64,000 nt of DNA from a bacterium (GCA_963681965.1 OY820579.1:1799379-1863378); one strand, 5' to 3'; counted from the first letter of the stretch, positions 1,343 to 56,464 are shown. Notes: a model not told the origin generated them from the sequence alone. A program made the numbers and translations.

Positions 1343-1438
1343 TGTATCATATTATTGGAGAATGCCCTTAGCACCTTGCGACCGAACTAGGTTTGGCTAA
1401 ATATAACCTGATCGACAACTCTGTCGATCACAGTTGTG

Positions 1439-1460
1439 CCGAACCTTGGGTTCGGTTTTT
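1439..1460 (+). terminator. hairpin plus T-run (ccgaacc-ttg-ggttcgg-ttttt) 20 nt upstream of the porU start; leader terminator or attenuator-like
   Basis: Perfect 7-bp GC-containing stem followed by TTTTT, read directly from the sequence. Confidence 0.35.
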
Positions 1461-1480
1461 CGTTTGTTTGGAGAGATGGA

Positions 1481-4400
1481 ATGCGGTGGTTTTCGGTATT
1501 AATCTTCATTTTAATAACCAGTTCGTTTGCAAGTTCAAGGTTGCCTTCGAATACGCTTCCACTTGCCGGAGTGGCGCTCCGAGTCTCGACTTATGAACAA
1601 CTCGATTTCACCGTTTCCAGTGATATTGTGAATCGGGAATCGAAACCGGGATCTTGGAAAGTGAAAGCGATTGATGGAACCTACCGGGTCGATCGAAATG
1701 GTCTGAAACATCCAGCGAAATTAGTATGGATTGCCGTTCCTCCCGGAAAACGGGTTCAGTTGACCTCGATAAAACCACAATCGACTTCATATCTGTCGGG
1801 TACGCTCGAACCTGCAATCTCCGATACGGCTAGGTCTGACTTGTTACGCGCTATGACTGGATCGAATTGGATTGAAATTGGAGAGCTGAATACTTTGCTG
1901 GGACATACTGTTGTGCCAGTATATATCATGTTTGCCGTTCAAAATGGCAATAGTATTGCGTACTCCAGCAACATCGCTGTTTCACTGCGGTTTGTTGACA
2001 TTACTTCGACACAATCCGTCGATCGAACACAATTGGCGCCGCTTCCCGATTATATTTTGAATCATTCGACGGCGAACAGATGGCGAACCTCGCGATCTTC
2101 AATCATGTCGCTAACTCAAACATCAACTGTTGCCCCGATAGGACCACTGTACCGAATTTCAACCAATTCCGAGGGAATTACTGAAATCACAGGAGCGGAA
2201 TTACAGCGAGCCGGAATCAATCTATCCCAAATCGATCCTCTTTCAATTAGATTATTGAGTAATTCGGCAAAGCCATTGGATGAAGCGTTGACAGCGGCGT
2301 TAAAAGAACCGTGGAATGAAATTGCAATTCTTGTGGAAGACGGAAACGACGGTAGATTCGATCCAACCGATCGCATCTTGTTTTACGGTGAATCCACATA
2401 CGGTTGGTCCCGGAACTCTAATTCAACTTTCAGCCATTGGTTATCTCCATATACGCGCAAAGCGACTTATTTTCTCGATTTGAATCAAGGTGGATTACCC
2501 GGTCGCAGAATGTCATCACTCCCATCTGCCAACGATGAATTACTGGTGACCACAGCTATTGGTCGCTACCTTCGCGAAGACGATTTAAGCTGCTTTGCCA
2601 ATGCATCATTCACTACCTCCGGAACACGATGGGTGGGTCCGTTATTGACGAATACCTCGGATATCATTCTGACTTTGCCACTTGCCGGCGCAGTTGCTTC
2701 ACCTACCGGTATCGTAAAATTTTCTTCTCGGTGGGTATCAACCGATAATCTTTATCCATCCAATGGAAGATTTCTTTTGAACGGAACGCAATTCGACGCA
2801 TCATCGTTTTCCTATTACGATATTGTGATCAATAATCAGGCGAGCGCTTCGTTATTGCATGAGGGAGCGAATCAATTTACTGCGCGGAAAACGGGGAGCC
2901 ACGATTTTTACTTCGACTGGTTGGAAGTTGAATATCCCCGCGATTTGACCATGCGGAATGGAAAGTTATTTGCCGATGTAACTATCGGATCGAAATATCG
3001 GGTGAACATCACCACCACGACGCTTCCCTATGTATTCGAGGTTTCGAATCGCGATAGTGTTCGATGGATTCACAATAAGAGCTTTGCCGATTCTGGATCT
3101 TCATTACAGTATCGCCGCTACGTGGCATTCGACGAAGATGCCTTTTTACATGTAGTATCGATCGACCCCGCACGTTTTGGTGGTGAAGATTACTCCTATC
3201 TTCGGGACACAACATTATCGGCAGATTATTTATTGATCTACGATGACGATTATCACGATCCCGCCAAGAAATTGCGCGATTACCGGATCTCACATAATTC
3301 GGTTGATGCGAAGATGATCCGAATTCAGGATATTTACGATTGTTTCTCCGGGGGGAATGTCGATCCTGTCGCGATTAGGAATTTTCTTCGGTATACCGTC
3401 ACCTCTTGGTCGCGTTCTCATTCGATTCCCAAATATGTCATGTTATTCGGCGATGGCGACTACGATTATCGTGGAATTCTTCAACCGAATACTAATCGAC
3501 CGATTCCGGCATACGAAATCAGTACTTATGCCACGGACGATTATTTTACCAGATTGACTGGTTCGACTGCATTACCCGAAATGATATCTGCACGCTTACC
3601 GCTCCAAACGCCCCGACAGATGGATGCTTGGGTAGATAAATTGATGACCTACGAAACACAGCCGGTACCCGGAACATGGCGGAATAAAATCGTTTTATGT
3701 GCCGATGATGAGTATGGACAAGGCGGAACCTATGATGCATTTGAGCAAACCCATACCGAAAAAACCGAAGATATTTCCCGACGACTGATTCCAAATACAT
3801 ACGAGCAAGTGAAAATATACCTACTTGAATATCCTGCAATCGTCGATCCAGTTCAATTAGCAAATGTCAAACCGGAAGCAAATGCCGCATTATTGACCGA
3901 ACTCGAGCGCGGTGCTTTGATGGTGAATTGGATCGGGCATGGCAATCCGCGAGTTTGGGCGCACGAGCAATTGTTGCGTGAAAGTCGCGATTTAAACCGG
4001 ATTAATACCGGGATGAAACTGCCACTTTGGCTGGGTTTCACTTGCGATTGGGCTTACTGGGACGATGCCGCGGTTCAAAGTATGCCGGAAAAATTGTTAG
4101 GCTTATCGAACAATGGAGCGCTGGCGGTCGTTGCAGCAACTCGACCAACTGGTGCCGATCCCAATGAAATTTTAGCCGATTACTTTTTCCGGGCAATACT
4201 GGACACATTGCAGCATCCCCACCGGTCGATTGCCGAAGCGCTGACATTGGCAAAAGTCCAATCGGGAACCGATGCCCCGTATTCTCGCGCCAATTCCAGT
4301 TTATATACCTCGCTATGCGATCCGTTGACACGATTGGCATTGCCGGAATACGATATCGGAATCGATTCGATAACTCCATCGCCGATTACCCCATTGGCTC

Positions 4401-5383
4401 GCTCAATGACCCATGGTAAAGTAGTAATACAAGATGGATCCAGTCTTAGCGATGGTCAACTTACCGTCACATTGCGCAGTTCGCCATTGAAGCGAGTACA
4501 TCATTGGGATGATGATCCATCGAATTCAGCCATAACTTATTTCAAACCGGGAAGATTGCTGTTCCGAGGTACGACGACATTGACGGATACTAGTTTCCGA
4601 ACCCCATTATTGTTGCCGCTTGATGTTACCTATAATGACAGCGCAACTGCTTATGCTTATGCGAACGGTAGTTGGGGTGCGGCATCGGGAATTCTGATCA
4701 ATCAACGCACCGATTCGGTTTGCGCGAATTTACGCGATACGATTCCGCCTGCGATAAAGCTTTTTATTAACAATCGAGAATTTCGTAGCGATGATATTGT
4801 GAATGACAACCCGATTTTACTAGCCGATATCGTCGACTCCAGTGGTGTAAATTTGACCGGTGAAATCGGACATCGTATTATTGCAACGATTGACGGCAAG
4901 GATCTGGATTTTACCGAACAATTCGCCTACATGAACAATCAAGTCACCAAGGGAACGGTAGAATCGCCACTAGGCTTCCTCGATCCGGGCAAACATCACT
5001 TGCGACTGGTTGCCTTTGATGGTGCTAATAATCCCGGAGTCGCCGTGATTGATTTCGAAGTTGCCTCGACCTCTTCGGAGTTATCGGTGCGGAATCTGTT
5101 GAACTATCCGAATCCAATCAGTGGAAACACGGCTTTTACGTTCGAATGTTCCGTTGCCGGAACGGCTTCGATCGATATTTATTCAATACACGGTACAAAA
5201 ATCCGGTCAATATCTAGTTTCCCGATTCACATCGGGTACAACTATCCTTCGGAGGCGACATGGGATGCACGCGATAAAGATGGCGTGGATGTTGCCAACG
5301 GGGTTTATCTATGGCGACTAAAAGCGAAAGCCGACGATGGACGATCGGTGGATGCTACCGGTCGCGCAGCGGTTTTACGATAA
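1481..5383 (+). CDS. porU: PorU-like peptidase C25 family protein with T9SS C-terminal domain (candidate T9SS C-terminal signal peptidase)
   Basis: ATG at 1481 preceded by a GGAGAG RBS; signal peptide MRWFSVLIFILITSSFASS; C25-like candidate catalytic dyad (WIGHGN ... LGFTCDWAY); C-terminal ~90 aa resembles a T9SS CTD (NYPNPISGNTAFTF...GVYLWRLKA); located immediately upstream of porV, as in Bacteroidota. Confidence 0.7.
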   Translation: MRWFSVLIFILITSSFASSRLPSNTLPLAGVALRVSTYEQLDFTVSSDIVNRESKPGSWKVKAIDGTYRVDRNGLKHPAKLVWIAVPPGKRVQLTSIKPQSTSYLSGTLEPAISDTARSDLLRAMTGSNWIEIGELNTLLGHTVVPVYIMFAVQNGNSIAYSSNIAVSLRFVDITSTQSVDRTQLAPLPDYILNHSTANRWRTSRSSIMSLTQTSTVAPIGPLYRISTNSEGITEITGAELQRAGINLSQIDPLSIRLLSNSAKPLDEALTAALKEPWNEIAILVEDGNDGRFDPTDRILFYGESTYGWSRNSNSTFSHWLSPYTRKATYFLDLNQGGLPGRRMSSLPSANDELLVTTAIGRYLREDDLSCFANASFTTSGTRWVGPLLTNTSDIILTLPLAGAVASPTGIVKFSSRWVSTDNLYPSNGRFLLNGTQFDASSFSYYDIVINNQASASLLHEGANQFTARKTGSHDFYFDWLEVEYPRDLTMRNGKLFADVTIGSKYRVNITTTTLPYVFEVSNRDSVRWIHNKSFADSGSSLQYRRYVAFDEDAFLHVVSIDPARFGGEDYSYLRDTTLSADYLLIYDDDYHDPAKKLRDYRISHNSVDAKMIRIQDIYDCFSGGNVDPVAIRNFLRYTVTSWSRSHSIPKYVMLFGDGDYDYRGILQPNTNRPIPAYEISTYATDDYFTRLTGSTALPEMISARLPLQTPRQMDAWVDKLMTYETQPVPGTWRNKIVLCADDEYGQGGTYDAFEQTHTEKTEDISRRLIPNTYEQVKIYLLEYPAIVDPVQLANVKPEANAALLTELERGALMVNWIGHGNPRVWAHEQLLRESRDLNRINTGMKLPLWLGFTCDWAYWDDAAVQSMPEKLLGLSNNGALAVVAATRPTGADPNEILADYFFRAILDTLQHPHRSIAEALTLAKVQSGTDAPYSRANSSLYTSLCDPLTRLALPEYDIGIDSITPSPITPLARSMTHGKVVIQDGSSLSDGQLTVTLRSSPLKRVHHWDDDPSNSAITYFKPGRLLFRGTTTLTDTSFRTPLLLPLDVTYNDSATAYAYANGSWGAASGILINQRTDSVCANLRDTIPPAIKLFINNREFRSDDIVNDNPILLADIVDSSGVNLTGEIGHRIIATIDGKDLDFTEQFAYMNNQVTKGTVESPLGFLDPGKHHLRLVAFDGANNPGVAVIDFEVASTSSELSVRNLLNYPNPISGNTAFTFECSVAGTASIDIYSIHGTKIRSISSFPIHIGYNYPSEATWDARDKDGVDVANGVYLWRLKAKADDGRSVDATGRAAVLR

Positions 5384-5405
5384 TGGAATCAATACGGAGG
5401 ATTGC

Positions 5406-6452
5406 ATGAAACGACTACTGATTTCAGTGCTAATGGGAATGATTGCACTGTTGATCTGCGCCCAGGCTTATGCCGGAGTTTCGGAAGCTGCGGCATTATT
5501 CCTGAAAATTTCCCCGGGTGCCCGGTACGGTGGCATGGGTGAAGCCGGTGTTGCACTGACCGACGATGCCAGTGCGACGTGGTGGAATCCCGCCGGACTC
5601 GGATTTCAGAACCAGCGACAGATTACTATGATGCACGCAAATTGGTTGCCGCAGTTCCATCTTCCCGACCTATACTACGACTTTATTTCGTACGTGCACA
5701 CTGTTCCTGAAGTAGGAACATTCGGTGGTCAGATTATCTTCCTCAATTTGGGAACTTCGACCAGAACCGATGAAGTCGGTAACGAACAGGGAACATTCTC
5801 GACCTACGAAGGGGCATTGGGAGCTTCCTACGGTACGCAACTTAATCAGCAGACTGCGCTCGGTATCAGTTTTAGAGTGATTTACTCGCATCTATCCGAT
5901 CGTGGCGCTGGTGCTGAAAAAGGTTCCGGGAGCGCAACCGGAGTTGGAGTCGATGTCGGCGTAATCCATAAGGCGAAGTTTCTCAAGGGTCTTCAGTACG
6001 GTGCGAACTTGTCGAATATGGGTCCGAAAATTTCCTATATCGATGCCGCTCAAGCCGATCCCATTCCGACCAATTTGAAATTAGGCGTTGCATATCACTT
6101 ACTCGATACCGAATTCAACAAAGTAACATTTGTAGCCGATGTCGATAAGGAACTGGTTCGCAAATACAGTGATGGTACATCCGATCCATTTTATGTAGCA
6201 TTGGTTACTAGTTGGACTGATGAGCCATTGATTCAGGAAATGATTTATCACGTTGGCGCTGAATATTGGTATACGAATTTGGTCGGATTGCGGATGGGCT
6301 ACTGGAACGACCAACAAGGTAAAGTCAAACCATTGACGTTCGGTGCTTCGCTGCAATATTCGGTCTATCGTTTCGATTTTAGCTATGTTTCCGCCGGTGA
6401 AGGACATCCTTTGACCGATACAATGCGCTTCTCGCTATCGATTGGTCTCTAA
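5406..6452 (+). CDS. porV: PorV/LptO-family outer membrane beta-barrel (T9SS shuttle protein)
   Basis: GGAGG RBS then ATG at 5406; signal peptide MKRLLISVLMGMIALLICAQAYA; conserved PorV N-terminal motif GARYGGMGEAGVALTDDASATWWNPAG; FadL-like barrel pattern; adjacent to porU. Confidence 0.75.
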   Translation: MKRLLISVLMGMIALLICAQAYAGVSEAAALFLKISPGARYGGMGEAGVALTDDASATWWNPAGLGFQNQRQITMMHANWLPQFHLPDLYYDFISYVHTVPEVGTFGGQIIFLNLGTSTRTDEVGNEQGTFSTYEGALGASYGTQLNQQTALGISFRVIYSHLSDRGAGAEKGSGSATGVGVDVGVIHKAKFLKGLQYGANLSNMGPKISYIDAAQADPIPTNLKLGVAYHLLDTEFNKVTFVADVDKELVRKYSDGTSDPFYVALVTSWTDEPLIQEMIYHVGAEYWYTNLVGLRMGYWNDQQGKVKPLTFGASLQYSVYRFDFSYVSAGEGHPLTDTMRFSLSIGL

Positions 6453-6504: not shown

Positions 6505-9500
6505 GTGACTAATCGATTGTACTTAATAGCGGGTTTGATTGCGGTACTGGTTTCGGTTTCGGTGGCAGTATCTACTCCACTAAAACCGTTATTTCGAGGA
6601 GTGAAGTCCGGTTCCGATTTCAAATCGCGGTCGATTGTCAGCTTGCGTCCGACGATGCGGATTCTCGCAATTCGTGTCGATTTTCCACGCGATACCATTT
6701 CGACTACGACCGGTGATGGTGGTTTCGATTTTGGAAATCGCGAAGGACGCAAAATCGATCCGCCTCCACATGACAGCAGTTATTTTCAAGATCAGTTCAA
6801 ATTTGTCGATCACTATTTTCGACAAGTTTCGGGAAACCGATTGTCGATGGAGGCTACGGTTTTTCCCTCCGGCAATCGTATTGCTTACCGAATGTCTGAG
6901 CCGATTTGGCATTATCATCCCGATCCTGCCGACAACGACTTGACCAATCAACGGATTACCGAATTGTGGCGGGAAGCATGGAACGCCGCGGGTCAAGATC
7001 CCAATGTTCACTTTTATACTGTGAGTGGGACTGATACCATTCCTAATTACGACCTCTATGTTGTTTTGCATGCCGGTTCTGGAAATGAATACGATTTAGG
7101 GTATGACGATACTCCGTTCGACATCCCTTCGGGATTCATGACCAAAGCTGATTATTCAAAATATTTATCCATAACCAATCCCCGTGGATTACCCATAACG
7201 ACTTCTGACGGTGGCACCTTCTACATCCCGGAAGGTGCCTTACTGCCGGAGATGTCGTCGCAGAAAACCGGTTCCGAATGGATCGATATCGGAGTCGGAG
7301 GTCTTTATACATTTTTACTCGGTCGATCGATCGGTATGCCGTTCCTGTACGATGTCGACAAGGGAACCTCGCGAGTTGGACGGTGGAGCCTGATGGATCG
7401 TGGATTCGGAACGTTTTTCGGTATTCTTCCCGGATATCCCGACGCCTATACTCGAATGCGGATGGGCTGGGTACAACCAGTTCCAGCACCCGATACCGGC
7501 ATCGTGGAACTTCGAATTCCGCAGGATACACTCCATCCCACGCTGCCTGAAGTCATGCGGTTCGAAGGTGCCGGCGACGAATATTATCTGATGGAAGCCC
7601 GGAATCGCGATCCTGATTCGGTGAAATGTGCTTATGTCTATGATGTTGCCGGACATCGTGCCAAACTGACCGATCAATATGAAATCGAACTTGATACCTC
7701 ACTCGCTAATTCATTTGGCGTGATCGTTCGTGCCGATAATTACGAATTCGATACACCCGGTAGTGGAGTGCTCGTTTGGCGCGTGAATGCTGCTGAAGAG
7801 CGACGTCGTACCGCGTTGAATATCCCTTTCCAAACCGGTTCTATACCGTATGTTTTGAAATTAATCGAAGCCGATGGTTCCGAGGATTTCGGTCAGAATT
7901 ACGATATGTTTTCACCCGGGAGTGGTACTGAAACCGGATCTCCCTACGATGCATTTTTCCGGAATAATACCGAATGGTCGCATGCCAATGGCGACGATGG
8001 CGCAGTTCGCTTTTCACGCGAAGTAAATCCCCCGGCAATCACTTCGAATGGTGCGCCACTACAGTTTACACTTGGGCAATTCTCTTCAGTTGGTTGGACG
8101 ATGTCCTTCCGGGTTTATCGAAATTCGAATCAACTGGAAGGCGAGAAACGGTTCCGGATTTCGCCGTCGAAGTCACCCGTCGTAGCAATTCCCTTTGATG
8201 TGAACAACGACCGCTTCGATGAAGTTTGGATTGCCGACAGTAATGCCATTTACGGACTTACTACCGATGGAAATTGGATCGGCACCGACACAATCCGATT
8301 CGTAACGCACGATCAGACCACAGGTGCGATGCTGGATTCGATTGCTTCGCCGGCACTATTCCACTTCGACGGTCCTCCGATTCGGAAAATGGTCTTTCAT
8401 AACGCTTCCGGATCGTTGCGAATATTAGCCTATCGATGTTATGCCGATGGTAGCGGAAAACGATTGACAGATTATGCTTGCACACTGCCAATTTCCGGAG
8501 CAGTGTCGTTATCGCAACATTCGATCGATCTACCGGGAGCAGTGACTACACTTGCTTGCGACGAAACCAGTAATCAGTGGATTGTTGGATTGAGTGATTA
8601 TGCAATTGTACGCGATTCGATCCGGACCAATCCACAATTAGTAATGACGTTTATCAATCGATCTTATCATCTCGATATTCTGAATCCGAGTGGCACAGAT
8701 CTCGAATTTCCACTCCCATCGGATCTATCGGGAAATCCGGAAATCTTTGGTTTAAACTCTACTGTTCCGCTGGCAGGTGTTGGAAATCGATTATACCGGT
8801 ATTCCGGAACGGAATGGTCCCTTGATCCTTCGTTTTCGATGGTCGCCGATTCGATTAAAGCGATTGGCTGGACAAGTGAAAACGCTGTTGTTATTACTCG
8901 CAACCAGTGGCTATTAACCAATGGTAAATCGCTTCGAACCGGATTTCCGCGCAGATTGCCATCCTCTTCAGCGCCAATATCTTTGGTGGCTGCCAAGACA
9001 ACACAAACCGATCCGGTAATCTGGTACGGCACCGAAACCGGTGAATTATGGAAATTGTATCGTGATCGAGTGGATCGCAATTATCCGATTGCGATCGGTA
9101 TTCAACCCGTGGACGGTTTGGTTTTGTTGACTGCTCATCATATACCTACTGCTCCGGATTCGGTGCGATTGGCAGCGGTGTCTCGCGATGGTGTGGTTTT
9201 TTTGACGACTTTACCCTTATCGGATGTTGAAGCGGCTACTTGGGCAGCCCCTGCCGGTACCGGCTCCGGATTACCGAATTCTACTCCCGAACGGGATTGG
9301 TCGGTGATGTACGATAACGGTCTCTCGTATGCATTCGTATGGCCCAATCCGATCAAGGGGAATCAGGGATTTGTCCGGGTAGGGTCAAATCAAGCCGGAA
9401 TGTCCCAAGCCAAAGCCGAAGTATTCGACGTTATCGGAGAGCGAATCGCGACACTACATAATCCCTATCCAGTAGAAGGGGGCGGGTACGAATGGCGCTG

Positions 9501-9594
9501 GGATGTTTCTTCAGTCTCGCGTGGTTTGTATATCGTTCGCGTTCAAGTTCCCGGTGCTCCGGTTAAAATGATCAAAGCAGCGGTGGTAAAATGA
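6505..9594 (+). CDS. M6 (immune inhibitor A)-like pseudo-metallopeptidase with T9SS C-terminal sorting domain
   Basis: GTG start after an AAGGACGGA RBS; signal peptide; M6-like landmarks are LAIRVDFPRD, HAGSGNE, GRWSLMDRG and YTRMRMGW, but the HEXXH position reads FLLGR; C-terminus PNPIKGNQGFVRV...GLYIVRVQVPG is a type-A T9SS CTD. Confidence 0.6.
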   Translation: MTNRLYLIAGLIAVLVSVSVAVSTPLKPLFRGVKSGSDFKSRSIVSLRPTMRILAIRVDFPRDTISTTTGDGGFDFGNREGRKIDPPPHDSSYFQDQFKFVDHYFRQVSGNRLSMEATVFPSGNRIAYRMSEPIWHYHPDPADNDLTNQRITELWREAWNAAGQDPNVHFYTVSGTDTIPNYDLYVVLHAGSGNEYDLGYDDTPFDIPSGFMTKADYSKYLSITNPRGLPITTSDGGTFYIPEGALLPEMSSQKTGSEWIDIGVGGLYTFLLGRSIGMPFLYDVDKGTSRVGRWSLMDRGFGTFFGILPGYPDAYTRMRMGWVQPVPAPDTGIVELRIPQDTLHPTLPEVMRFEGAGDEYYLMEARNRDPDSVKCAYVYDVAGHRAKLTDQYEIELDTSLANSFGVIVRADNYEFDTPGSGVLVWRVNAAEERRRTALNIPFQTGSIPYVLKLIEADGSEDFGQNYDMFSPGSGTETGSPYDAFFRNNTEWSHANGDDGAVRFSREVNPPAITSNGAPLQFTLGQFSSVGWTMSFRVYRNSNQLEGEKRFRISPSKSPVVAIPFDVNNDRFDEVWIADSNAIYGLTTDGNWIGTDTIRFVTHDQTTGAMLDSIASPALFHFDGPPIRKMVFHNASGSLRILAYRCYADGSGKRLTDYACTLPISGAVSLSQHSIDLPGAVTTLACDETSNQWIVGLSDYAIVRDSIRTNPQLVMTFINRSYHLDILNPSGTDLEFPLPSDLSGNPEIFGLNSTVPLAGVGNRLYRYSGTEWSLDPSFSMVADSIKAIGWTSENAVVITRNQWLLTNGKSLRTGFPRRLPSSSAPISLVAAKTTQTDPVIWYGTETGELWKLYRDRVDRNYPIAIGIQPVDGLVLLTAHHIPTAPDSVRLAAVSRDGVVFLTTLPLSDVEAATWAAPAGTGSGLPNSTPERDWSVMYDNGLSYAFVWPNPIKGNQGFVRVGSNQAGMSQAKAEVFDVIGERIATLHNPYPVEGGGYEWRWDVSSVSRGLYIVRVQVPGAPVKMIKAAVVK

Positions 9595-12500
9595 AGCGAA
9601 CGACTGCCTACTCGATTTTAGGAATATCGCTCCTGCTGCTGATTGGAGTGGCGTTTGCGCAAGTAACTCCATTCAATCACGCTGAATTATTATGGCGAAC
9701 GATCGAAGGGAAGCACCACATCGTCCATTACCACGTCGGCGCTGAACGTACTGCTCAAATGATTTTGGATATTGCCGACGAAGTACATCAACCACTTGCC
9801 GATCTGTACAAATACGAACCGGATACGAAAGTCAACTGGGTCATTTACGATACCGACGATTATGCCAACGGCGCGACGTATTTCCTGAACAATCGCATCG
9901 TGATCTGGGCACCGGCACTCGATTTTGAATTTCGTGGTACGCATAATTGGCTTCGAAATGTTGTGACGCATGAATATACTCATATGATTCAACTCGGAGC
10001 TGCACGGAAGTGGTCGCGACAGATGCCGGCGATCTACGGACAGTATATCGGTTATGAACCGGAAACCCGACCCGATGTTCTGTATGGTTTCCCGAATCGG
10101 ATCATGAGTTACCCACTATCCAATACTACCGTTCCTCATTGGTTTGCCGAAGGAACAGCACAATCGATGCGCCGCGGAATGAATTACGATTATCGCGATA
10201 GCCACCGCGAGATGCTTCTTCGCTCTCGAGCGCTTGCCGACAATTTGTTGACGATGGATGAGATGGGTGTCTTCGAGAAGACTAGTCTTGGCGGCGAATT
10301 GGTTTACAACCAGGGATTTGCGTTAGTTCAATACATAATCGACCGGTTCGGTGAAACTGCTTTAAGAACACTATCTGAATCACTCGGGTCAATGTCGGTT
10401 TGGTCGTTCGATGCCGCGTGCCGGAAGACACTGGGTATACCGGCTCAGAAGCTTTACGATGAATGGGTTCGCGCGATGAAGGAAACCTATCGCGTGCGCA
10501 CTGAAACAATACGCCAGCACGAAGTGACCGGTCGATTGTTGGAAGAAGATGGCTTTGCTAATCTATATCCACGATGGTCGATCGACGGGAAAAAAATATA
10601 CTTTACCTCGAATAAGGAAAAGGATTATTTCGGTGGATCGTCGTTGGTCGAGATGAATCTTGCAACCGGTAAGAAAGAGAAGCTCGTCAAAACAATGGCA
10701 CCCTTTGCAGTTCACCCGAATGGCAAAGGATTGATCTATTCGGAACAACCGTTACAAAAGGGGCAGCGACGACTCGACGATCTATTCTTCTACGATTTTG
10801 CGAAGAAAAAATCCTACCGGCTGACTTATGCCGAACGTGCGCAACAACCCGATGTTTCATCGGATGGGAAAAAGATTGTCGCCGTCACGCAATCCGACGG
10901 AACGATGAATCTTGTCGTGTTTGAACTTCCCGATTCGATCAAAGCCGATGTGAAGCAAAAAGCACAACTGAAGAAACGAGTATTGACATCCTATGTCAAT
11001 GGCGAACAATTATCTCACCCTCGATTTTCACCTGACGGAAATAAAATTCTTTATTCTTTCGCACGCGAACAAAACCGCGATCTATTCGAATTCGATCTAA
11101 CGACAAATACTTCCACGCTACTGCGCGCGAGTAAATGGGATGACCGCGACGTCGCATGGTCAAAAGATGGTCAGTGGATCTATTTTTCCAGCGACTCAAC
11201 TGGTATCTGGAATATTTACCGGATGCGTAGCGATCGCACAATCATCGAACCGGTGACGAATGTTGTCGGCGGTGCTCTGCTCGGTGAACCATCGCCGGAT
11301 GGTGCGAAATTGGCATTCTGTCGATACGAATCGACCGGCTATAAGTTAGCATTATTGGATAAAATCGAACCAGTCGATCGAGCATACATGCAGTATCAAC
11401 AGAACTATGCTCAATCGCTGCCGAATGTGTCGATACCCGATTCGATGCCACCGGCGAAACCAGTCATGAAATACAAACCGGCATTCGAGAAAACCTATAT
11501 TCTTCCGCGAATTGCTTGGGATTACGGTCGTTTCAAACCCGGTTTCTATGTCTATACGAACGATTATCTGGAAAAATTGAACCTGTTCGGTGGCTTTGCG
11601 ATTAATGGTAAGAAGGACTACGACTTGTATTTGTCGACCGACTACCGACAACTTCCACCGACGTTGTTCATGGACTTTTACAATATCGTCCGTCACGACG
11701 ATAAACGATTCGATGATCCGCTCCGAATTGTTGGTCAATCCGGTCACGGTGATTCAGCCCAACCGATTTATGCACAATATGGAACAAAATATAAGTTCAC
11801 GTTGCTCGAATTGGATATCGGTTTCCGGTACAATATCGATGAGAAGACTGTTGCCAGTTTGTATGGTATGTTCTCGCGCTACAGTGCGGCACTAGATTTC
11901 GACGACGGTTCATCATCGTTTGGTTACACGTATTTCAAAGGTCACAGTCTTGTCGCTTCGCTTACGCAAACCGCAATTACGCGCAGTGTAACCGATGACA
12001 TCAATCCGTCCGGTGGTTATCAATTCGGAATTCGGGCGCAACGCTCGCAGCACAATTACATCCAAGGGTTCACCATCAACGCCGATAAACTGACACTGCA
12101 GGAAGTCTATTCACCCTACAATTACTGGCAGTTGGAAGGATCGTTTAATTATTATCAGAAGCTCTGGCATAAATGGGTGATGTCGCCGTCGGTTAAACTT
12201 GGTTATATCGATCGTAACGTCGATCCATTCATGAATCTTTATGCCGGTGGTTTGTTCGGGATGCGCGGCTATTCGTTCTATAGTCTTGGTGGTACTCGCA
12301 CGACTATTGCACAACTAGCACAGGAACTCCCGTTGTGGGAGCCGATGGGCAAACGACAGTATCTCGGTTGGGTACATCCGATAAGCGTCTATGCCAATCT
12401 ATTCGCCGATGTCGGATCGGCATGGCGTGGCGATGTGCAACATGCAAAATGGGTGCGGGATTTGGGTGGTGAATTGCGGTTTGGTTCGATATCGGTATTC

Positions 12501-12677
12501 AGTTATCCTACCGCGATCACGTTGTCGGCAGCACGCGGATTAGACCGGGTATCGGTGACCGAAAACGACAATACGACCGTATATGCGCCCCAGTGGCGAT
12601 ATTACTTCACAATTTTATTTGGATTTACTCAACCGCCGACTGGAATACAACCAGCTCGTGCGATTGACCGGCAGTAA
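9591..12677 (+). CDS. fusion protein: peptidase-MA-like (HEYTH) domain + TolB-like PD40 beta-propeller + Omp85-family (BamA/TpsB-like) C-terminal beta-barrel
   Basis: ATGA overlap with the upstream gene; signal peptide; HEYTHM zinc motif at aa 127-131; six or more PD40-like blades (WSIDGKKIYFTS, FSPDGNKILYSF, WSKDGQWIYFSS, PSPDGAKLAF...); C-terminal ~450 aa of alternating beta-strand pattern with an Omp85 loop-6-like GGLFGMRGY motif and a beta-signal-like YYFTILFGF near the C-terminus. Confidence 0.55.
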   Translation: MKRTTAYSILGISLLLLIGVAFAQVTPFNHAELLWRTIEGKHHIVHYHVGAERTAQMILDIADEVHQPLADLYKYEPDTKVNWVIYDTDDYANGATYFLNNRIVIWAPALDFEFRGTHNWLRNVVTHEYTHMIQLGAARKWSRQMPAIYGQYIGYEPETRPDVLYGFPNRIMSYPLSNTTVPHWFAEGTAQSMRRGMNYDYRDSHREMLLRSRALADNLLTMDEMGVFEKTSLGGELVYNQGFALVQYIIDRFGETALRTLSESLGSMSVWSFDAACRKTLGIPAQKLYDEWVRAMKETYRVRTETIRQHEVTGRLLEEDGFANLYPRWSIDGKKIYFTSNKEKDYFGGSSLVEMNLATGKKEKLVKTMAPFAVHPNGKGLIYSEQPLQKGQRRLDDLFFYDFAKKKSYRLTYAERAQQPDVSSDGKKIVAVTQSDGTMNLVVFELPDSIKADVKQKAQLKKRVLTSYVNGEQLSHPRFSPDGNKILYSFAREQNRDLFEFDLTTNTSTLLRASKWDDRDVAWSKDGQWIYFSSDSTGIWNIYRMRSDRTIIEPVTNVVGGALLGEPSPDGAKLAFCRYESTGYKLALLDKIEPVDRAYMQYQQNYAQSLPNVSIPDSMPPAKPVMKYKPAFEKTYILPRIAWDYGRFKPGFYVYTNDYLEKLNLFGGFAINGKKDYDLYLSTDYRQLPPTLFMDFYNIVRHDDKRFDDPLRIVGQSGHGDSAQPIYAQYGTKYKFTLLELDIGFRYNIDEKTVASLYGMFSRYSAALDFDDGSSSFGYTYFKGHSLVASLTQTAITRSVTDDINPSGGYQFGIRAQRSQHNYIQGFTINADKLTLQEVYSPYNYWQLEGSFNYYQKLWHKWVMSPSVKLGYIDRNVDPFMNLYAGGLFGMRGYSFYSLGGTRTTIAQLAQELPLWEPMGKRQYLGWVHPISVYANLFADVGSAWRGDVQHAKWVRDLGGELRFGSISVFSYPTAITLSAARGLDRVSVTENDNTTVYAPQWRYYFTILFGFTQPPTGIQPARAIDRQ

Positions 12678-12708
12678 CAAAACGACGCGTTAACAGGAGG
12701 TAGTAAGA

Positions 12709-13626
12709 ATGTGGTATAAATTAATCATTTTGGTTTTAGCGTTGTGTTCGATTTCCTTCGCGATACCGTACAAGGAAGCGGATAATTCCGATAATATGCA
12801 ACCATTACCGAAGTCACTCAGTCAACTTCAGCATGAGCGCGAAATCAAACTGGTGGCAGCGATGGAAAGTGGTGCCCCAACCGATTCGACAACTGCTGCT
12901 CCGGTAAAAGGTCCGAATATGGGCAAAGCGATGTTGTTATCGGCGATCATGCCCGGAACCGGTCAACTCTACATCGGAAGCAAATGGAAAGGGTATACTT
13001 TCCTAGGAATCGAAGCCGCTGCTTGGACAATGGCAATCATGTACAATGTCAAAGGCAACCAAACAACGAAAGATTTTCAGAATTATGCCGAATCCCACTG
13101 GGGTGTAAACGAATCCTTATATCGCCAAAAGGAATTCTATTACGCGACATTGAATAGTCTCCCCTCGCGAATTTCTTCGACACCTTATCAGGGAACCCGT
13201 GCCGATTGGGATTTATTGAGCTGGGATGACAAATCGAAATATTTACCATCGAACTTCACCCACGAACTGCCGTCATCGCATAATCAGCAATGGTACGAAA
13301 TGATTGGTAAGTATTTGACGCAATTCGGTCCCTTCTGGGATGACGCCGATACTTCGTCTTCGGCATACAGTGCGACCGGCGTTTGGTCAGGATCCAGTAC
13401 AACTGCCAATAAATACGCCGACAAACGATATGATGCGAACAAGCAATTGAAAGCCGGAAATACAATGTTCATGGTTGTAATGATCAATCACGTATTGTCC
13501 GCAACGGACGCTGTATTATCGGTTAAAGCGATGAACAATCGAACCGTCCAAACTGCCGTTCGATTGGAACAGCGAAGCTTCAACAATGAAGTAGTCACGA
13601 TGCCAACACTTCATATTACGTTCTGA
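12709..13626 (+). CDS. secreted hypothetical protein, paralog A (PG-x-GQ motif family, DUF5683-like)
   Basis: AGGAGG RBS; signal peptide ...CSISFA; motifs SAIMPGTGQLY + hydrophobic GIEAAAWTMAI and C-terminal VMINHVLSATDAV shared with the next ORF. Confidence 0.55.
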   Translation: MWYKLIILVLALCSISFAIPYKEADNSDNMQPLPKSLSQLQHEREIKLVAAMESGAPTDSTTAAPVKGPNMGKAMLLSAIMPGTGQLYIGSKWKGYTFLGIEAAAWTMAIMYNVKGNQTTKDFQNYAESHWGVNESLYRQKEFYYATLNSLPSRISSTPYQGTRADWDLLSWDDKSKYLPSNFTHELPSSHNQQWYEMIGKYLTQFGPFWDDADTSSSAYSATGVWSGSSTTANKYADKRYDANKQLKAGNTMFMVVMINHVLSATDAVLSVKAMNNRTVQTAVRLEQRSFNNEVVTMPTLHITF

Positions 13627-13628
13627 CA

Positions 13629-14264
13629 ATGAAACGACTCTATCTGGTAATTTTTTCTGGATTGATTGCGCTGACGTCGTTTGCGCAACCGCTCCCGCGT
13701 CCGAAAGCACCTACCGGTTCAACGGTATTTTTCAAGTCGCTGTTGTTACCGGGATGGGGGCAGATGTCGCAGGGAAGACCAAAAGAGGCTACAATTTTCC
13801 TGTCATCCGAAGCGATCCTAATTGTTACTACATTTGGTTTGCAAACCTACGGTGATTGGCTCAAAAGCGACTATCGATCGGTAGCAGCGCTCTATGCCGG
13901 GATCCCGAATGGCGGTAATCGGAACCATACAATGTATGTCGATATGGGAAATTGGAATACCGTGGAAGAATTCAATGCTGCACGACAACGCGATCGCGAA
14001 TATGATCGACAATATTTGAAAGCCGAGGATCAGTGGCGCTGGACGAATGATTCCGAACGAAGGCGTTTTAAAGCGCTTCGTTTGAAATCGGATAAAGTAT
14101 TGGAATCGGTTAAATTCTCGATCGGTGCGGTAGTCGTCAATCATTTTATTGCCGCAATTGAAGCATCAGCATTCGAACGTAAGAAAGTGAAAAACCCGTC
14201 GATCGGTGTCACGATGTCGGGAACAACGAGCGAACCACAGGTTCGACTTCATGTGAATTGGTAA
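13629..14264 (+). CDS. secreted hypothetical protein, paralog B (PG-x-GQ motif family, DUF5683-like)
   Basis: Starts 2 nt after the paralog A stop; signal peptide ...LTSFA; motifs SLLLPGWGQM + SSEAILIVTTF and C-terminal VVNHFIAAIEASAF. Confidence 0.55.
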   Translation: MKRLYLVIFSGLIALTSFAQPLPRPKAPTGSTVFFKSLLLPGWGQMSQGRPKEATIFLSSEAILIVTTFGLQTYGDWLKSDYRSVAALYAGIPNGGNRNHTMYVDMGNWNTVEEFNAARQRDREYDRQYLKAEDQWRWTNDSERRRFKALRLKSDKVLESVKFSIGAVVVNHFIAAIEASAFERKKVKNPSIGVTMSGTTSEPQVRLHVNW

Positions 14265-25895: not shown

Positions 25896-26386
25896 AATAC
25901 TTTCAACTACTTGACAAGATCATCATCCGGATTGTCGAAGGGATAATCGTCGCGATCTTGGCATATATGCTACTCGGCCAGTTATATCAAGTAATTGCCC
26001 GTAACTTCTGGGGCGGTGGAATCGAAGCGGTTGATTTCACCATGCGCTACGGCATCGTTTGGTTGGGTTTGCTCGGTGGCGTTGTAGCGATGCGAACCGG
26101 AAATCAGATTCGAATCGATTTGGTTCTAAAACTGTCATCGTTGCAAGTGCGACGGTGGCTGGAATTAGCTACTTCGATTGCAACTGCCGCAATCTGTATA
26201 TTTCTGTTAAAAGCATCGCTTTCTATGATCGCCGCCGAAACCGCTGCTCAGACCAAGCTATTCGGCAATTATACCGTGGTGCCGTTTCTCTGGGTTTATC
26301 CTGTTGGCTTTGGTTTGATTGCAGTCGAAACGCTCATCCGCGGAATTCAAATTGCGATAACCGGTGTGATTGAGGAGCCCCAATGA
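25892..26386 (+). CDS. dctQ: TRAP transporter small permease (DctQ)
   Basis: TTGA overlap with the dctP stop; four TM helices; ~160 aa. Confidence 0.7.
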   Translation: MKYFQLLDKIIIRIVEGIIVAILAYMLLGQLYQVIARNFWGGGIEAVDFTMRYGIVWLGLLGGVVAMRTGNQIRIDLVLKLSSLQVRRWLELATSIATAAICIFLLKASLSMIAAETAAQTKLFGNYTVVPFLWVYPVGFGLIAVETLIRGIQIAITGVIEEPQ

Positions 26387-27672
26387 GCCTCATTATTACC
26401 GGATTCATCCTTATTGCACTTGCCGGAGCCCCATTATTCGCAATTTTTGGTGGACTGGCAGTTGCACTATTCACCCGGGACGGGATTGATCCTGCCGCAG
26501 CGATCATTGAATTCAATCGTCTTGCCAGCCAACCGATTTTAATAGCAATTCCCCTTTTCACTTTCGCCGGTTACCTATTAGCGCGCTCGAATGCGCCAAA
26601 TCGCCTTATCCGTCTATCGCGGGCATGGATTGGTTGGATTCCCGGTGGATTAGCGTTGGTCACATTACTTGCTTGTGCCGTATTTACCGCTTTCACCGGT
26701 GCCAGTGGCGTTACCATTATTGCGATCGGTGGACTGGTTTATCCGATCCTCTTGCAGGAAAAATACCCTCAAAGATTTAGTCTCGGATTGGTTGCTTCTT
26801 CTGGATCGATCGGTCTACTATTTCCACCTTCTTTACCGGTCATTTTATACGGAATTGTGGCAAAAACTTCGGTTGATCGGCTCTATGTGGGCGGGATGCT
26901 TCCGGGTATCATGATGATTTTGTTTCTGGCATTTTACTCGGTGAAAGTTGCGATGCCGCTCGAACGTATTAAGTTCGATTGGGGCAATGCAATTGCATCG
27001 TTAAAAGAAGCCAAATGGGATCTACCACTACCCTTCATCATTCTATTCGGGATTTACACCGGCAAATTTACGGTAGCCGAAGCGGCTGCTATCACCGCCG
27101 GATACGTACTCATCGTCGAAGTGTTTATTCATCGCGAAGTGTCGTTAACCAAACAACTCCCCAAAATTATGCGCGACAGTATGATTCTGGTAGGTGGTAT
27201 CAAAATTATTCTTGGCTGCGCACTTGCATTTACCAGCTATCTGATCGATGCGCAAGTACCGAATCGGTTGTTCGAGTGGATCAGCACATTTATTGCCAGC
27301 AAGTATGTCTTCCTGCTGTTGTTAAATGTATTCTTACTGCTCGTAGGTACAATGATGGATATTTTCTCAGCTATCGTTGTCGTCGTTCCACTCATTGTGC
27401 CGATCGCAAATCAGTTCGGAGTCAATCCAATTCACCTCGGGATCATCTTTCTCACCAATCTCGAAATCGGGTATCTTTCGCCTCCAGTGGGTATGAATTT
27501 ATTTATGGCGAGCTACCGGTTTAAGATTCCGTTGATGAGATTGTACCGTGTAGCATTACCGTTTCTCATTCTGATGTTTATTGCCCTGTTATTGATTACT
27601 TATGTACCCGAGTTGAGCTTGGGTCCGGTGGACTTCTTTTTTCCCAAGGATGTACCTGTAACTACGCCATGA
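26383..27672 (+). CDS. dctM: TRAP transporter large permease (DctM)
   Basis: GAGGAG RBS; ATGA overlap with dctQ; polytopic 429-aa membrane protein. Confidence 0.8.
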   Translation: MSLIITGFILIALAGAPLFAIFGGLAVALFTRDGIDPAAAIIEFNRLASQPILIAIPLFTFAGYLLARSNAPNRLIRLSRAWIGWIPGGLALVTLLACAVFTAFTGASGVTIIAIGGLVYPILLQEKYPQRFSLGLVASSGSIGLLFPPSLPVILYGIVAKTSVDRLYVGGMLPGIMMILFLAFYSVKVAMPLERIKFDWGNAIASLKEAKWDLPLPFIILFGIYTGKFTVAEAAAITAGYVLIVEVFIHREVSLTKQLPKIMRDSMILVGGIKIILGCALAFTSYLIDAQVPNRLFEWISTFIASKYVFLLLLNVFLLLVGTMMDIFSAIVVVVPLIVPIANQFGVNPIHLGIIFLTNLEIGYLSPPVGMNLFMASYRFKIPLMRLYRVALPFLILMFIALLLITYVPELSLGPVDFFFPKDVPVTTP

Positions 27673-56280: not shown

Positions 56281-56464
56281 TTCGTACTGTATTTCACACT
56301 CTAAATATTTACGTATAACCTAATTGGAAATCGTGTCGCAATTGCGATAATCACTGAGTGATCTGCGGATCTCCTCACTGAGTAGTCTCGACTCAAGTTT
56401 GAGATCACAATTCATTAGCATTACCTTTAAGACTATTGATTCCCTATAAAACGAGGAGTTATTG

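Follow-up and report, generated by a model that had tools for sequence, protein, structure and literature searches.

A protein with peptidase, propeller and Omp85-type barrel domains, encoded in a conserved gene module with porU and porV

We identified, in a window of 64,000 nucleotides (the whole stretch of bacterial DNA that was analysed), a gene for a 1028-aa protein that combines a peptidase domain, a beta-propeller and an Omp85-type beta-barrel in a single polypeptide. Synteny showed that the gene belongs to a conserved module of five to six genes, consisting of porU, porV, a gene for an inactive M6-like T9SS cargo protein, the target gene, and one or two DUF5683 genes. The fusion itself was already known, and the aspect that we found in no paper is the rigid porU/porV module with this gene: in the searchable literature, strict linkage of a peptidase-propeller-barrel gene to porU and porV is not described.

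Domains of the 1028-aa protein

In the ORF listing, the target gene is a single ORF (Table 1), the ATG of which overlaps the stop codon of the preceding M6-like gene in a shared ATGA. Its product is identical to database entry P0001, from a 4.34-Mb contig, and was modeled by AF2 with a pLDDT of 89.1 and a pTM of 0.87. The original prediction had called an HEXXH peptidase, a TolB-like propeller and an Omp85-type barrel in this chain, and all three were confirmed, in the order signal peptide, peptidase, six-bladed propeller, 42-aa linker and 16-strand barrel. With more than 1656 homologues in the database, and E = 0 for full-length matches, this combination is not a chance observation. In the AF2 model, the signal peptide, predicted to be cleaved between MKRTTAYSILGISLLLLIGVAFA and Q, is an N-terminal helix of low confidence; inspection of its sequence revealed no lipobox cysteine.

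Table 1. Features of the target gene and its neighbours in the window
Feature	Residues	Position (nt)	Strand	Basis
porU, T9SS sortase		1436..5383	+	NF033707 618.8 bits, cutoff 420; Peptidase_C25; public gene call starts 1481
porV, T9SS outer-membrane shuttle		5406..6452	+	NF033709 282.9 bits, cutoff 90; PF19572
M6-like pseudo-protease with T9SS C-terminal sorting domain		6505..9594	+	NF052323 E 6e-82; weak Por_Secre_tail match
Target gene, peptidase-propeller-Omp85 protein	1-1028	9591..12677	+	ORF list; stop codon included
Sec-type signal peptide	1-24	9591..9662	+	Read from sequence; predicted cleavage site
Gluzincin-type (Peptidase_MA_2-like) metallopeptidase domain	25-312	9663..10526	+	Pfam PF13485, conservation
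HEYTH zinc-binding/catalytic motif	127-131	9969..9983	+	H127, E128, H131 invariant, n=76 sequences
WFAEG motif	184-188	10140..10154	+	W184, A186, E187, G188 invariant, n=76
Six-bladed PD40/TolB-like beta-propeller	313-592	10527..11366	+	
Poorly conserved linker without POTRA	593-634	11367..11492	+	AF2 model, conservation
16-strand Omp85-type beta-barrel	635-1012	11493..12626	+	
Loop-6 motif GGLFGMRGY, equivalent of Omp85 (V/I)RG(Y/F)	886-894	12246..12272	+	Conservation, AF2 model
Strand-13 motif FADVG, equivalent of Omp85 (F/G)xDxG	938-942	12402..12416	+	Conservation
Last barrel strand WRYYFTILFGF	1002-1012	12594..12626	+	Y1005, F1010 invariant; L1009, F1012 nearly so
DUF5683-like partner 1		12709..13626	+	Weak PF18935 match; homologues named DUF5683
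DUF5683-like partner 2, paralogue of partner 1		13629..14264	+	Weak PF18935 match

Conservation was highest in the peptidase domain, in which 84 of 288 positions were at least 90% conserved. The zinc motif noticed originally, VVTHEYTHMIQ, is present at aa 124-134 (nt 9960-9992), and its two histidines and glutamate do not vary among 76 relatives. Together with the equally invariant E187, they form the HEXXH plus downstream Glu pattern of gluzincin clan MA(E), and E187 is presumed, by analogy with this pattern, to be the third zinc ligand. Pfam Peptidase_MA_2 (PF13485), proposed as a check, matched aa 179-294 with an E value of 1.2e-5, but the score (25.6 bits) was under the gathering cutoff of 32.4; it also matched 39 of 45 relatives (best E 1.2e-10). 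A sequence-profile search found no close solved-structure relative of this domain. As judged from its sequence, the domain is a predicted gluzincin metallopeptidase with an intact predicted active site.

The PD40/TolB-type blades reported for the middle of the protein make up a six-bladed propeller. When TIGR02800 (TolB) was run on the 1028-aa protein, it scored 100 bits (cutoff 343), with alignment confined to model positions 196-353 (the propeller). Full-length TolB identity was rejected, as the score was under the cutoff and the N-terminal (TolA-binding) domain of TolB is absent. The protein also differs from TolB of the Tol-Pal system in being membrane-embedded and in its genomic context.

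Only 2 of the 42 linker positions are conserved. In the AF2 model, its secondary structure amounts to two helices of 4 residues and a single short strand, and no beta-alpha-alpha-beta-beta (POTRA) element was seen in it. Likewise, no POTRA family was found among the Pfam hits of the protein or its 45 relatives, in line with the absence of POTRA domains noted at the outset. A POTRA-bearing Omp85 of the BamA, TamA or TpsB type was ruled out, since no POTRA precedes the barrel. Membership in the PlpD-like type Vd autotransporter class was also rejected: there is no patatin family among the Pfam hits of the protein and its 45 relatives, and no POTRA by Pfam or in the AF2 model.

The Omp85-type barrel and its subfamily

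Structure prediction, which had been suggested for the barrel, gave the anticipated 16 strands, as counted in the DSSP string of the AF2 model. The C-terminal Omp85-type barrel is therefore present, but it spans about 380 aa and not the ~450 aa first assigned to it. GGLFGMRGY, proposed to be loop-6-like, sits in a 29-residue loop (aa 874-902) between strands 11 and 12, with M-R-G-Y at aa 891-894. In 76 sequences, G886, G887, G890, G893 and Y894 are invariant, and position 892 is occupied by R (63) or K (13). Similarly, the strand-13 motif has F (69) or Y (7) at position 938, D (60) or E (16) at position 940, and an invariant G942; from BamA structures, we take (F/G)xDxG in strand 13 to be a family-defining motif of Omp85 proteins. 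YYFTILFGF, originally described as beta-signal-like, lies in the final barrel strand, and the 16-aa tail that follows is unconserved and has a pLDDT <50 in the AF2 model. The barrel has the fold, the loop-6 motif and the strand-13 motif of the Omp85/TpsB superfamily.

Profile searches gave a less uniform picture. PF01103 (Bac_surface_Ag), also named as a check, did not match the 1028-aa protein itself at E <= 1, but matched 23 of 45 relatives at E <= 0.01 (best E 8.2e-9). NCBIfam BamA matched aa 825-905 with an E value of 3e-5, and the best barrel matches were BamA proteins. The protein shares the 16-strand barrel, the RGY-type loop-6 motif and the strand-13 FxDxG motif with BamA and TamA, whereas its sequence similarity to them is marginal (TamA E 0.005-0.016 by the family profile), and it bears an enzyme and a propeller in place of their POTRA domains.

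The original prediction held that such an arrangement would be undescribed, which turned out to be incorrect. Heinz & Lithgow (2014, Front Microbiol 5:370, PMC4104836) catalogued a 'WD40-like' Omp85 subfamily with PF07676 repeats and PF01103 (also in their Table S2), members of which matched BamA/TamA barrels (100%), TolB (100%) and M1-type aminopeptidases (~99%) by Phyre2 (Table S3). Members were listed from Caldithrix, Rhodothermus, Chloroherpeton, Salinibacter and Cloacimonas (for example, UniProt H1XQ58, D0MEQ5 and B3QRX6), and those with aminopeptidase-like domains also from myxobacteria, Geobacter and other Proteobacteria. By architecture, the 1028-aa protein is a member of this subfamily: it has a PD40/TolB-like propeller before an Omp85 barrel, no POTRA, and an aminopeptidase-like (gluzincin) N-terminal domain. 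By contrast with the present analysis, that paper goes no further than cataloguing the subfamily and suggesting a 'BamA-BamB fusion', has the peptidase in a supplementary table only, and mentions neither T9SS nor linkage to porU/porV.

Related genomes were surveyed, as had been proposed, and at least 595 species genomes, from Calditrichota, KSB1, Ignavibacteria and related groups, were found to encode relatives. Caldithrix genomes encode full-length relatives at 35-44% identity. When 1.84 billion representatives were searched with the barrel alone, only 194 relatives were returned, the full-length ones being ~1000 aa. No curated family model exists for this peptidase-propeller-barrel protein.

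A conserved module with T9SS genes

The gene had been placed in a T9SS locus, and both porU and porV, just upstream, scored over their NCBIfam cutoffs. The product of the M6-like gene is called a pseudo-protease here because the position of its zinc motif reads FLLGRSIGMPF. On the other side of the target gene, DUF5683-like partner 1 has a signal peptide, helices and a C-terminal beta hairpin (AF2 pLDDT 82.5).

We compared 84 loci from about 80 species. Upstream of the target-gene relatives, the M6-like gene was found in 80 of the 84 loci, PorV in 74 and PorU in 50; downstream, DUF5683 partner 1 was found in 78, and in distant loci as well, and partner 2 in 46. An overlap of stop and start codons (4 or 1 nt) was seen in 23 of 80 loci, and the gap was <=134 nt in 64 of 80. 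Five distant relatives (26-32% barrel identity) were checked: all five loci kept the PorV gene, four had a ~1000-aa protein just upstream (with a sorting domain detected in three), and all five had a DUF5683-type gene or an unannotated gene for ~305-370 aa downstream. At one locus, L085, a BamD/YfiO-like gene follows the module. The 1028-aa protein is linked genomically with core T9SS genes, as would be expected of a T9SS component. It was rejected as a T9SS cargo, having no C-terminal type A or type B sorting domain; Por_Secre_tail did not match it, and its C-terminus is the barrel.

Gene order also bears on whether the operon position could be incidental, the protein being a general envelope protease or a Tol-like protein that is functionally unconnected with T9SS. 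Source annotations read 'biopolymer transporter Tol' and 'PD40 domain-containing protein', and the propeller does resemble TolB. Moreover, WD40-like Omp85 relatives occur in myxobacteria, Geobacter and other Proteobacteria, all without T9SS, so the architecture cannot be intrinsically T9SS-specific. We nevertheless consider this explanation very improbable. The TolB model falls far under its cutoff and covers the propeller alone, and the order with porV, the M6-like gene and DUF5683 is kept in about 80 species, down to 26-32% barrel identity and with overlapping codons, which is not expected of an incidental neighbour.

Possible role at the outer membrane

In the AF2 model, the loop-6 side of the barrel carries long hairpins and loops, and the opposite side has seven turns, mostly short (2-12 residues). 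Because the loop joining strands 11 and 12 carries the loop-6 motif and the long loops are on that side, the N-terminal end of strand 1 would be at the periplasmic face. This barrel topology, read with the known topology of BamA, suggests that the N-terminal 610 residues (peptidase and propeller) are periplasmic.

As the best explanation of the whole, we tentatively propose that the protein is a periplasm-facing, propeller-gated predicted metallopeptidase, anchored in the outer membrane and acting as an accessory of the T9SS sorting machinery. The predicted Sec signal peptide would send it to the periplasm, and the C-terminal barrel would both anchor it in the outer membrane and offer a docking platform beside PorV and PorU. 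Propellers restrict substrate access in tricorn and prolyl-oligopeptidase-type enzymes, and the propeller here may admit only short or unfolded polypeptides to the peptidase. Both this gating and the periplasmic position are proposed from topology rules and analogy. The peptidase could clear T9SS-related polypeptides at the outer membrane; as a guess, its substrates might be cargo that has stalled or misfolded, or C-terminal sorting domains after their cleavage. The protein would then be a T9SS sorting/attachment accessory in Calditrichota, KSB1, Ignavibacteria and related lineages.

A metallopeptidase role at the periplasmic face of the barrel is suggested by functional analogy with BepA-BAM. 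BepA, a zinc protease of the periplasm, docks on BamA (PMC8423444, PMC13478230) and likewise places a zinc metallopeptidase and a protein-interaction scaffold on the periplasmic side of an Omp85 barrel. BepA, however, is a separate soluble M48 protein with a TPR scaffold, whereas the 1028-aa protein has a Peptidase_MA_2-type gluzincin and a propeller scaffold, with all three parts in one chain. A second precedent, for the link between T9SS and an Omp85 protein, comes from P. gingivalis, in which an Omp85 gene lies in one operon with T9SS genes (PMC12773653).

The conserved Omp85 functional motifs in loop 6 and strand 13 would be equally compatible with an active role, as insertase or translocase, instead of a passive anchor. 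The protein might be a dedicated Omp85-type insertase, its barrel working in the manner of BamA, TamA or Sam50, that folds outer-membrane parts of T9SS (PorV, the giant SprA/Sov barrel or the DUF5683 beta hairpin), with the fused peptidase and propeller taking the place of POTRA and acting as an in-chain protease for quality control, as if BepA and BamB had been joined to BamA. The best barrel matches to BamA proteins agree with this possibility, as do the 'BamA-BamB fusion-like' reading of Heinz & Lithgow (PMC4104836), the beta hairpin and terminal aromatic residue with which the DUF5683 partners end, resembling a beta-signal, the BamD/YfiO-like gene at L085, and the presence of P. gingivalis T9SS genes in one operon with an Omp85 (BamA-like) gene (PMC12773653). 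We regard it as unlikely, however, given that POTRA is absent in every member (AF2 model of the 1028-aa protein, Pfam on 45 relatives) and that the peptidase is more conserved than the barrel. In addition, to our knowledge, no peptidase-propeller-Omp85 protein has been described for T9SS assembly in the classical Bacteroidia and Flavobacteriia.

PorU acts on the cell surface, where the T9SS sorting domain is cleaved, and the cargo-type M6-like protein would work there as well. A self-exporting surface protease, the barrel of which exports its own peptidase and propeller, could act beside these two proteins, for example by degrading sorting domains cut from PorV-held cargo. PlpD (type Vd, patatin-POTRA-Omp85) also has an N-terminal enzyme domain and an Omp85 barrel in one polypeptide, and is a precedent for export of such a domain (PMC4104836). 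Its exported part is a patatin lipase followed by POTRA, whereas here the would-be passenger is a 600-aa peptidase and propeller, with no POTRA between passenger and barrel. The short linker of just 42 aa, the filling of the lumen by loop 6 in Omp85 barrels and the pTM of 0.87, which suggests a fixed multidomain assembly and not a released passenger, further make self-export quite improbable. We also know of no case in which a six-bladed propeller is exported, already folded, through a barrel of 16 strands.

An accessory role in T9SS sorting, our preferred reading, can be compared with known T9SS components. PorE of P. gingivalis is an example of a T9SS component that is a propeller protein of the periplasm with a tie to the outer membrane, and we know of no described component with an Omp85 barrel or a gluzincin domain. 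The P. gingivalis attachment complex PorU-PorV-PorZ-PorQ differs in that PorQ is a barrel of the PorV-like and not the Omp85 kind, and in that PorZ has the form of a double propeller and not that of an M6-like pseudo-protease. What the two have in common is that the target gene is encoded with porU and porV, and the order of the module (sorting-domain surface protein, barrel, sorting-domain surface protein, barrel) mirrors the pairs PorU:PorV and PorZ:PorQ.

Domain organization and conservation of the fusion protein

The peptidase–propeller–Omp85 fusion protein (1028 aa) is encoded by an uninterrupted ORF. In Pfam analysis, PD40 repeats were detected at E 1.3e-19, whereas the match to Peptidase_MA_2 (E 1.2e-5) stayed below threshold; in the precomputed annotation, Tricorn_N/Tricorn_2nd also match the PD40 region. 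No Pfam match to the Omp85 family was obtained in the protein itself, and the loop-6 region of the NCBIfam BamA model matched aa 825-905 weakly (E 3e-5). When 45 family members were scanned one by one, PD40 was detected in all 45 (best E 5.1e-26), Peptidase_MA_2 in 39 (best E 1.2e-10), and Omp85 (PF01103) in 23 (best E 8.2e-9). A chance ORF or an assembly chimera was ruled out by an identical protein on record, on a 4.34-Mb contig, and by hundreds of homologues that are full-length and share the domain order.

Searching 5.8 billion proteins gave more than 1656 homologues, of which the best 120 are full-length (~1000-1080 aa, 38-73% identity) and are named 'PD40 domain-containing protein', 'biopolymer transporter Tol' or 'hypothetical'. 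In an alignment of 76 of these homologues, H127, E128, H131, E187 (in WFAEG), G886, G887, G890, G893 and Y894 are invariant, position 892 is R or K throughout, and the strand-13 motif F938-x-D/E940-x-G942 is conserved. Among the domains, conservation is highest in the peptidase, where 84 of 288 positions are at least 90% conserved, as against 70 of 378 in the barrel and 25 of 280 in the propeller. A query with the barrel only retrieved 194 relatives among 1.84 billion cluster representatives, without reaching canonical BamA/TamA; the full-length relatives are ~980-1185 aa with a C-terminal barrel. Of nine relatives taken from among the most distant ones, all keep Peptidase_MA_2, and PD40 is detectable in eight.

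The AlphaFold2 model, computed from the 76-sequence alignment (pLDDT 89.1, pTM 0.87), contains the 16-strand barrel that the original prediction had proposed to look for, and the 42-residue linker before it contains no POTRA fold according to the secondary-structure string. In Foldseek searches against the PDB, TolB-type propellers (E ~1e-10) and BamA/TamA barrels (E ~1e-7) were retrieved; for the peptidase domain, no significant PDB relative was found by sequence profile. The RGY motif sits in a 29-residue loop between strands 11 and 12, and FxDxG on strand 13, a placement that in the model is the BamA register. Thus, the ORF, its motifs, the Pfam matches of the family, and the model bear out the initial observation of an HEXXH peptidase, a TolB-like propeller and an Omp85-type barrel in one polypeptide. 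The protein is predicted to be a Sec-exported outer-membrane protein, and, as judged from its sequence and model, it carries an Omp85-type barrel together with a gluzincin active site that is intact and strongly conserved.

Affiliation with the WD40-like Omp85 proteins

Omp85 proteins are central machines that build bacterial and organellar outer membranes. The fusion protein has the structural and motif features of this superfamily, but lacks the POTRA domains of BamA, TamA and TpsB. A TolB paralogue was ruled out, as the NCBIfam TolB equivalog model meets the protein only through the propeller (100 bits vs a cutoff of 343) and the N-terminal domain of TolB is absent. The protein was likewise rejected as a T9SS cargo, as it has no C-terminal sorting domain.

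When the Omp85/TpsB superfamily was split into ten subfamilies, a 'WD40-like' subfamily was described that combines PF07676 repeats with PF01103 and has no POTRA (Heinz & Lithgow, Front Microbiol 2014; PMC4104836). Among its members are proteins of Caldithrix abyssi, Rhodothermus marinus, Chloroherpeton, Salinibacter, Cloacimonas and several Proteobacteria. For WD40-like members, Table S3 of that study records Phyre2 matches at 100% to both BamA/TamA and TolB, and at ~99% for the 'best aminopeptidase hit' (tricorn-interacting factor F3, aminopeptidase A/N, ERAP1). Therefore, the three-part architecture, at first thought to be undescribed, had already been catalogued more than a decade ago. Because the protein has the hallmarks of Omp85, has no POTRA, does not reach the TolB cutoff, and fits the WD40-like architecture, it is a member of this known, functionally uncharacterised kind. 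Databases mislead by naming it 'biopolymer transporter Tol' or 'PD40 domain-containing protein'. In the later literature, one paper uses the term WD40-like Omp85 and none was found that studies the subfamily; NCBIfam release 20 holds no model for the subfamily or for an Omp85 fusion protein. POTRA-less Omp85 variants have thus stayed functionally blank ten years after cataloguing, and the present locus places one of them in a concrete, testable context.

Genomic context in the window and in other genomes

The gene lies in a module with porU, porV, a gene for an M6-like pseudo-protease, and genes for two paralogous DUF5683-like proteins, and its ATG shares ATGA with the stop codon of the ORF before it. 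The M6-like protein has a weak T9SS C-terminal sorting domain. Its expected HExxHxxGxxD reads FLLGRSIGMPF (aa 269-279 of that protein), so it lacks all zinc ligands and the catalytic Glu; it may have a PorZ-like structural role. The DUF5683 partner gave a fair model and no informative fold match. Since the mechanical porV ORF, from 5337, overlaps the porU end, whereas the public start leaves a 22-nt gap, the shorter start is probably right.

Features of the window and of the fusion protein (positions in the window, or aa of the fusion protein where stated)
Feature	Position	Strand	Evidence or remark
porU	1436-5383		upstream of the fusion gene; NF033707, 618.8 bits (cutoff 420)
porV	5406-6452 (public gene call)	+	upstream of the fusion gene; NF033709, 282.9 bits (cutoff 90)
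M6-like pseudo-protease, 1029 aa	6505-9594	+	'T9SS-dependent M6-like inactivated metalloprotease', E 6e-82, below equivalog cutoff
Fusion protein, 1028 aa	9591-12677	+	ORF list of the window
Peptidase domain, alpha/beta	aa 35-310		model secondary-structure string
VVTHEYTHMIQ	aa 124-134
Peptidase_MA_2	aa 179-294		Pfam
Propeller, 24 strands (six four-stranded blades)	aa 315-589		model secondary-structure string
Linker, 42 residues, two tiny helices	between propeller and barrel		model secondary-structure string
Barrel, sixteen strands	aa 636-1010		model secondary-structure string
GGLFGMRGY	aa 886-894
YYFTILFGF	aa 1004-1012
Two DUF5683-like proteins	downstream of the fusion gene
ORF, 497 aa	22349-23842	+	no Pfam match at E <= 1e-5
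TRAP DctM	26383-27672
ORF, 687 aa	36119-38182	+	no Pfam match at E <= 1e-5
PFOR	42493-46065
CstA	49424-51268	-
Type III glutamine synthetase	53192-55381	-
Aconitase	56462-58399

The NCBIfam numbers NF052323 (T9SS-dependent M6-like inactivated metalloprotease), NF052324 ('putative sortase PorU2') and NF052325 ('PorV2') run on, and all three appear among the matches on 1436-5383, 5337-6452 and 6505-9594. This consecutive numbering suggests that curators built models for a second PorU/PorV sorting set that includes an M6-like partner. The remainder of the window consists of housekeeping genes, with two sizeable ORFs lacking a Pfam match.

The family is common: relatives of the fusion protein occur in at least 595 species (one genome per species scanned), which belong to Calditrichota, KSB1, LCP-89, Ignavibacteria and Kryptonia or are MAGs with a Bacteroidota or Chlorobi-like label. 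By tblastn with the window's neighbour genes at 84 loci, the M6-like gene (80 loci), PorV (74) and PorU (50) were found upstream, and the first (78) and second (46) DUF5683 genes downstream; missing neighbours mostly reflect truncated contigs. The upstream stop codon overlaps the start of the fusion gene by 4 or 1 nt at 23 of 80 loci, and lies within 134 nt of it at 64. Five of the nine distant relatives were looked up: all five loci keep PorV, and in each the downstream gene is either of the DUF5683 type or unannotated with ~305-370 aa; four have a ~1000-aa protein directly upstream, with a sorting domain detected in three. Overlapping start and stop codons were again seen at distant loci. 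By gene order and codon overlap, the fusion protein belongs to a predicted translationally coupled module with PorU, PorV, the cargo-type pseudo-protease and DUF5683 proteins.

At one distant locus (L085), a YfiO/BamD-like gene (12241-13008) directly follows the module. On the contig encoding another distant relative (P0217), the module contains PorV twice, along with a Metallophos gene and a second paralogue of the fusion protein, of 1080 aa.

In a literature search on T9SS with Omp85, TolB-like or PD40 proteins and PorU2/PorV2, no paper described a T9SS operon context for this family, and the only precedent found was the P. gingivalis Aim operon, in which T9SS genes lie with a BamA-like gene (PMC12773653). 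What this analysis adds is this rigid T9SS operon context, in which the gene is locked together with the sortase PorU and the shuttle PorV in several FCB-group phyla known mostly from metagenomes; it provides a hypothesis that can be tested for a family so far blank.

Topology and candidate functions

In the model, the loop-6 side of the barrel carries long hairpins and loops, and the other side has seven turns, mostly short (2-12 residues). Because these loop lengths, by analogy with the known BamA topology, place the N-terminal end of strand 1 at the periplasmic side, the peptidase and propeller would face the periplasm. A PlpD-like self-exported surface protease is improbable in our estimate. 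We tentatively favor a periplasm-facing, propeller-gated peptidase acting on T9SS-related polypeptides, a reading we hold at somewhat short of even. The propeller would restrict access to unfolded or short polypeptides, much like the propellers of tricorn and of prolyl-oligopeptidase-type enzymes, and the predicted enzyme may act on stalled or misfolded cargo, or on cleaved sorting domains, at the site where PorV and PorU operate. In function, BepA-BAM offers the closest analogy: BepA reportedly docks on BamA for quality control, whereas the fusion protein has both parts in one chain. An alternative, which we consider unlikely, is an insertase dedicated to the outer-membrane parts of the T9SS that carries its own quality-control protease. 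If the T9SS link is functional, T9SS would gain a protease as well as an Omp85 component, and sorting modules outside Bacteroidia would be built differently.

A further proposal, in our view as unlikely as the insertase, concerns the module as a whole, as an undescribed form of T9SS attachment/sorting complex in Calditrichota, KSB1, Ignavibacteria and related lineages. Here the Omp85-type barrel would stand in for PorQ, pairing in the outer membrane with a surface protein that is retained and keeps its sorting domain, the periplasmic propeller-gated peptidase would remove cleaved sorting domains or stalled cargo, and C-terminal beta hairpins of the DUF5683 proteins would dock on the barrel. 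If true, no Omp85-family protein would have been shown before this one to be a working part of a non-type V secretion system.

The main caution comes from architecturally similar proteins listed in PMC4104836 for Proteobacteria, which have no T9SS, so the architecture predates the T9SS link or extends beyond it. These proteins speak for an envelope protease of general function that is unconnected with T9SS, which, for the protein at this locus, we regard as the least probable reading of all. Even if the T9SS link is not functional, the protein would still be a clear example of a predicted membrane-anchored, propeller-gated periplasmic protease.
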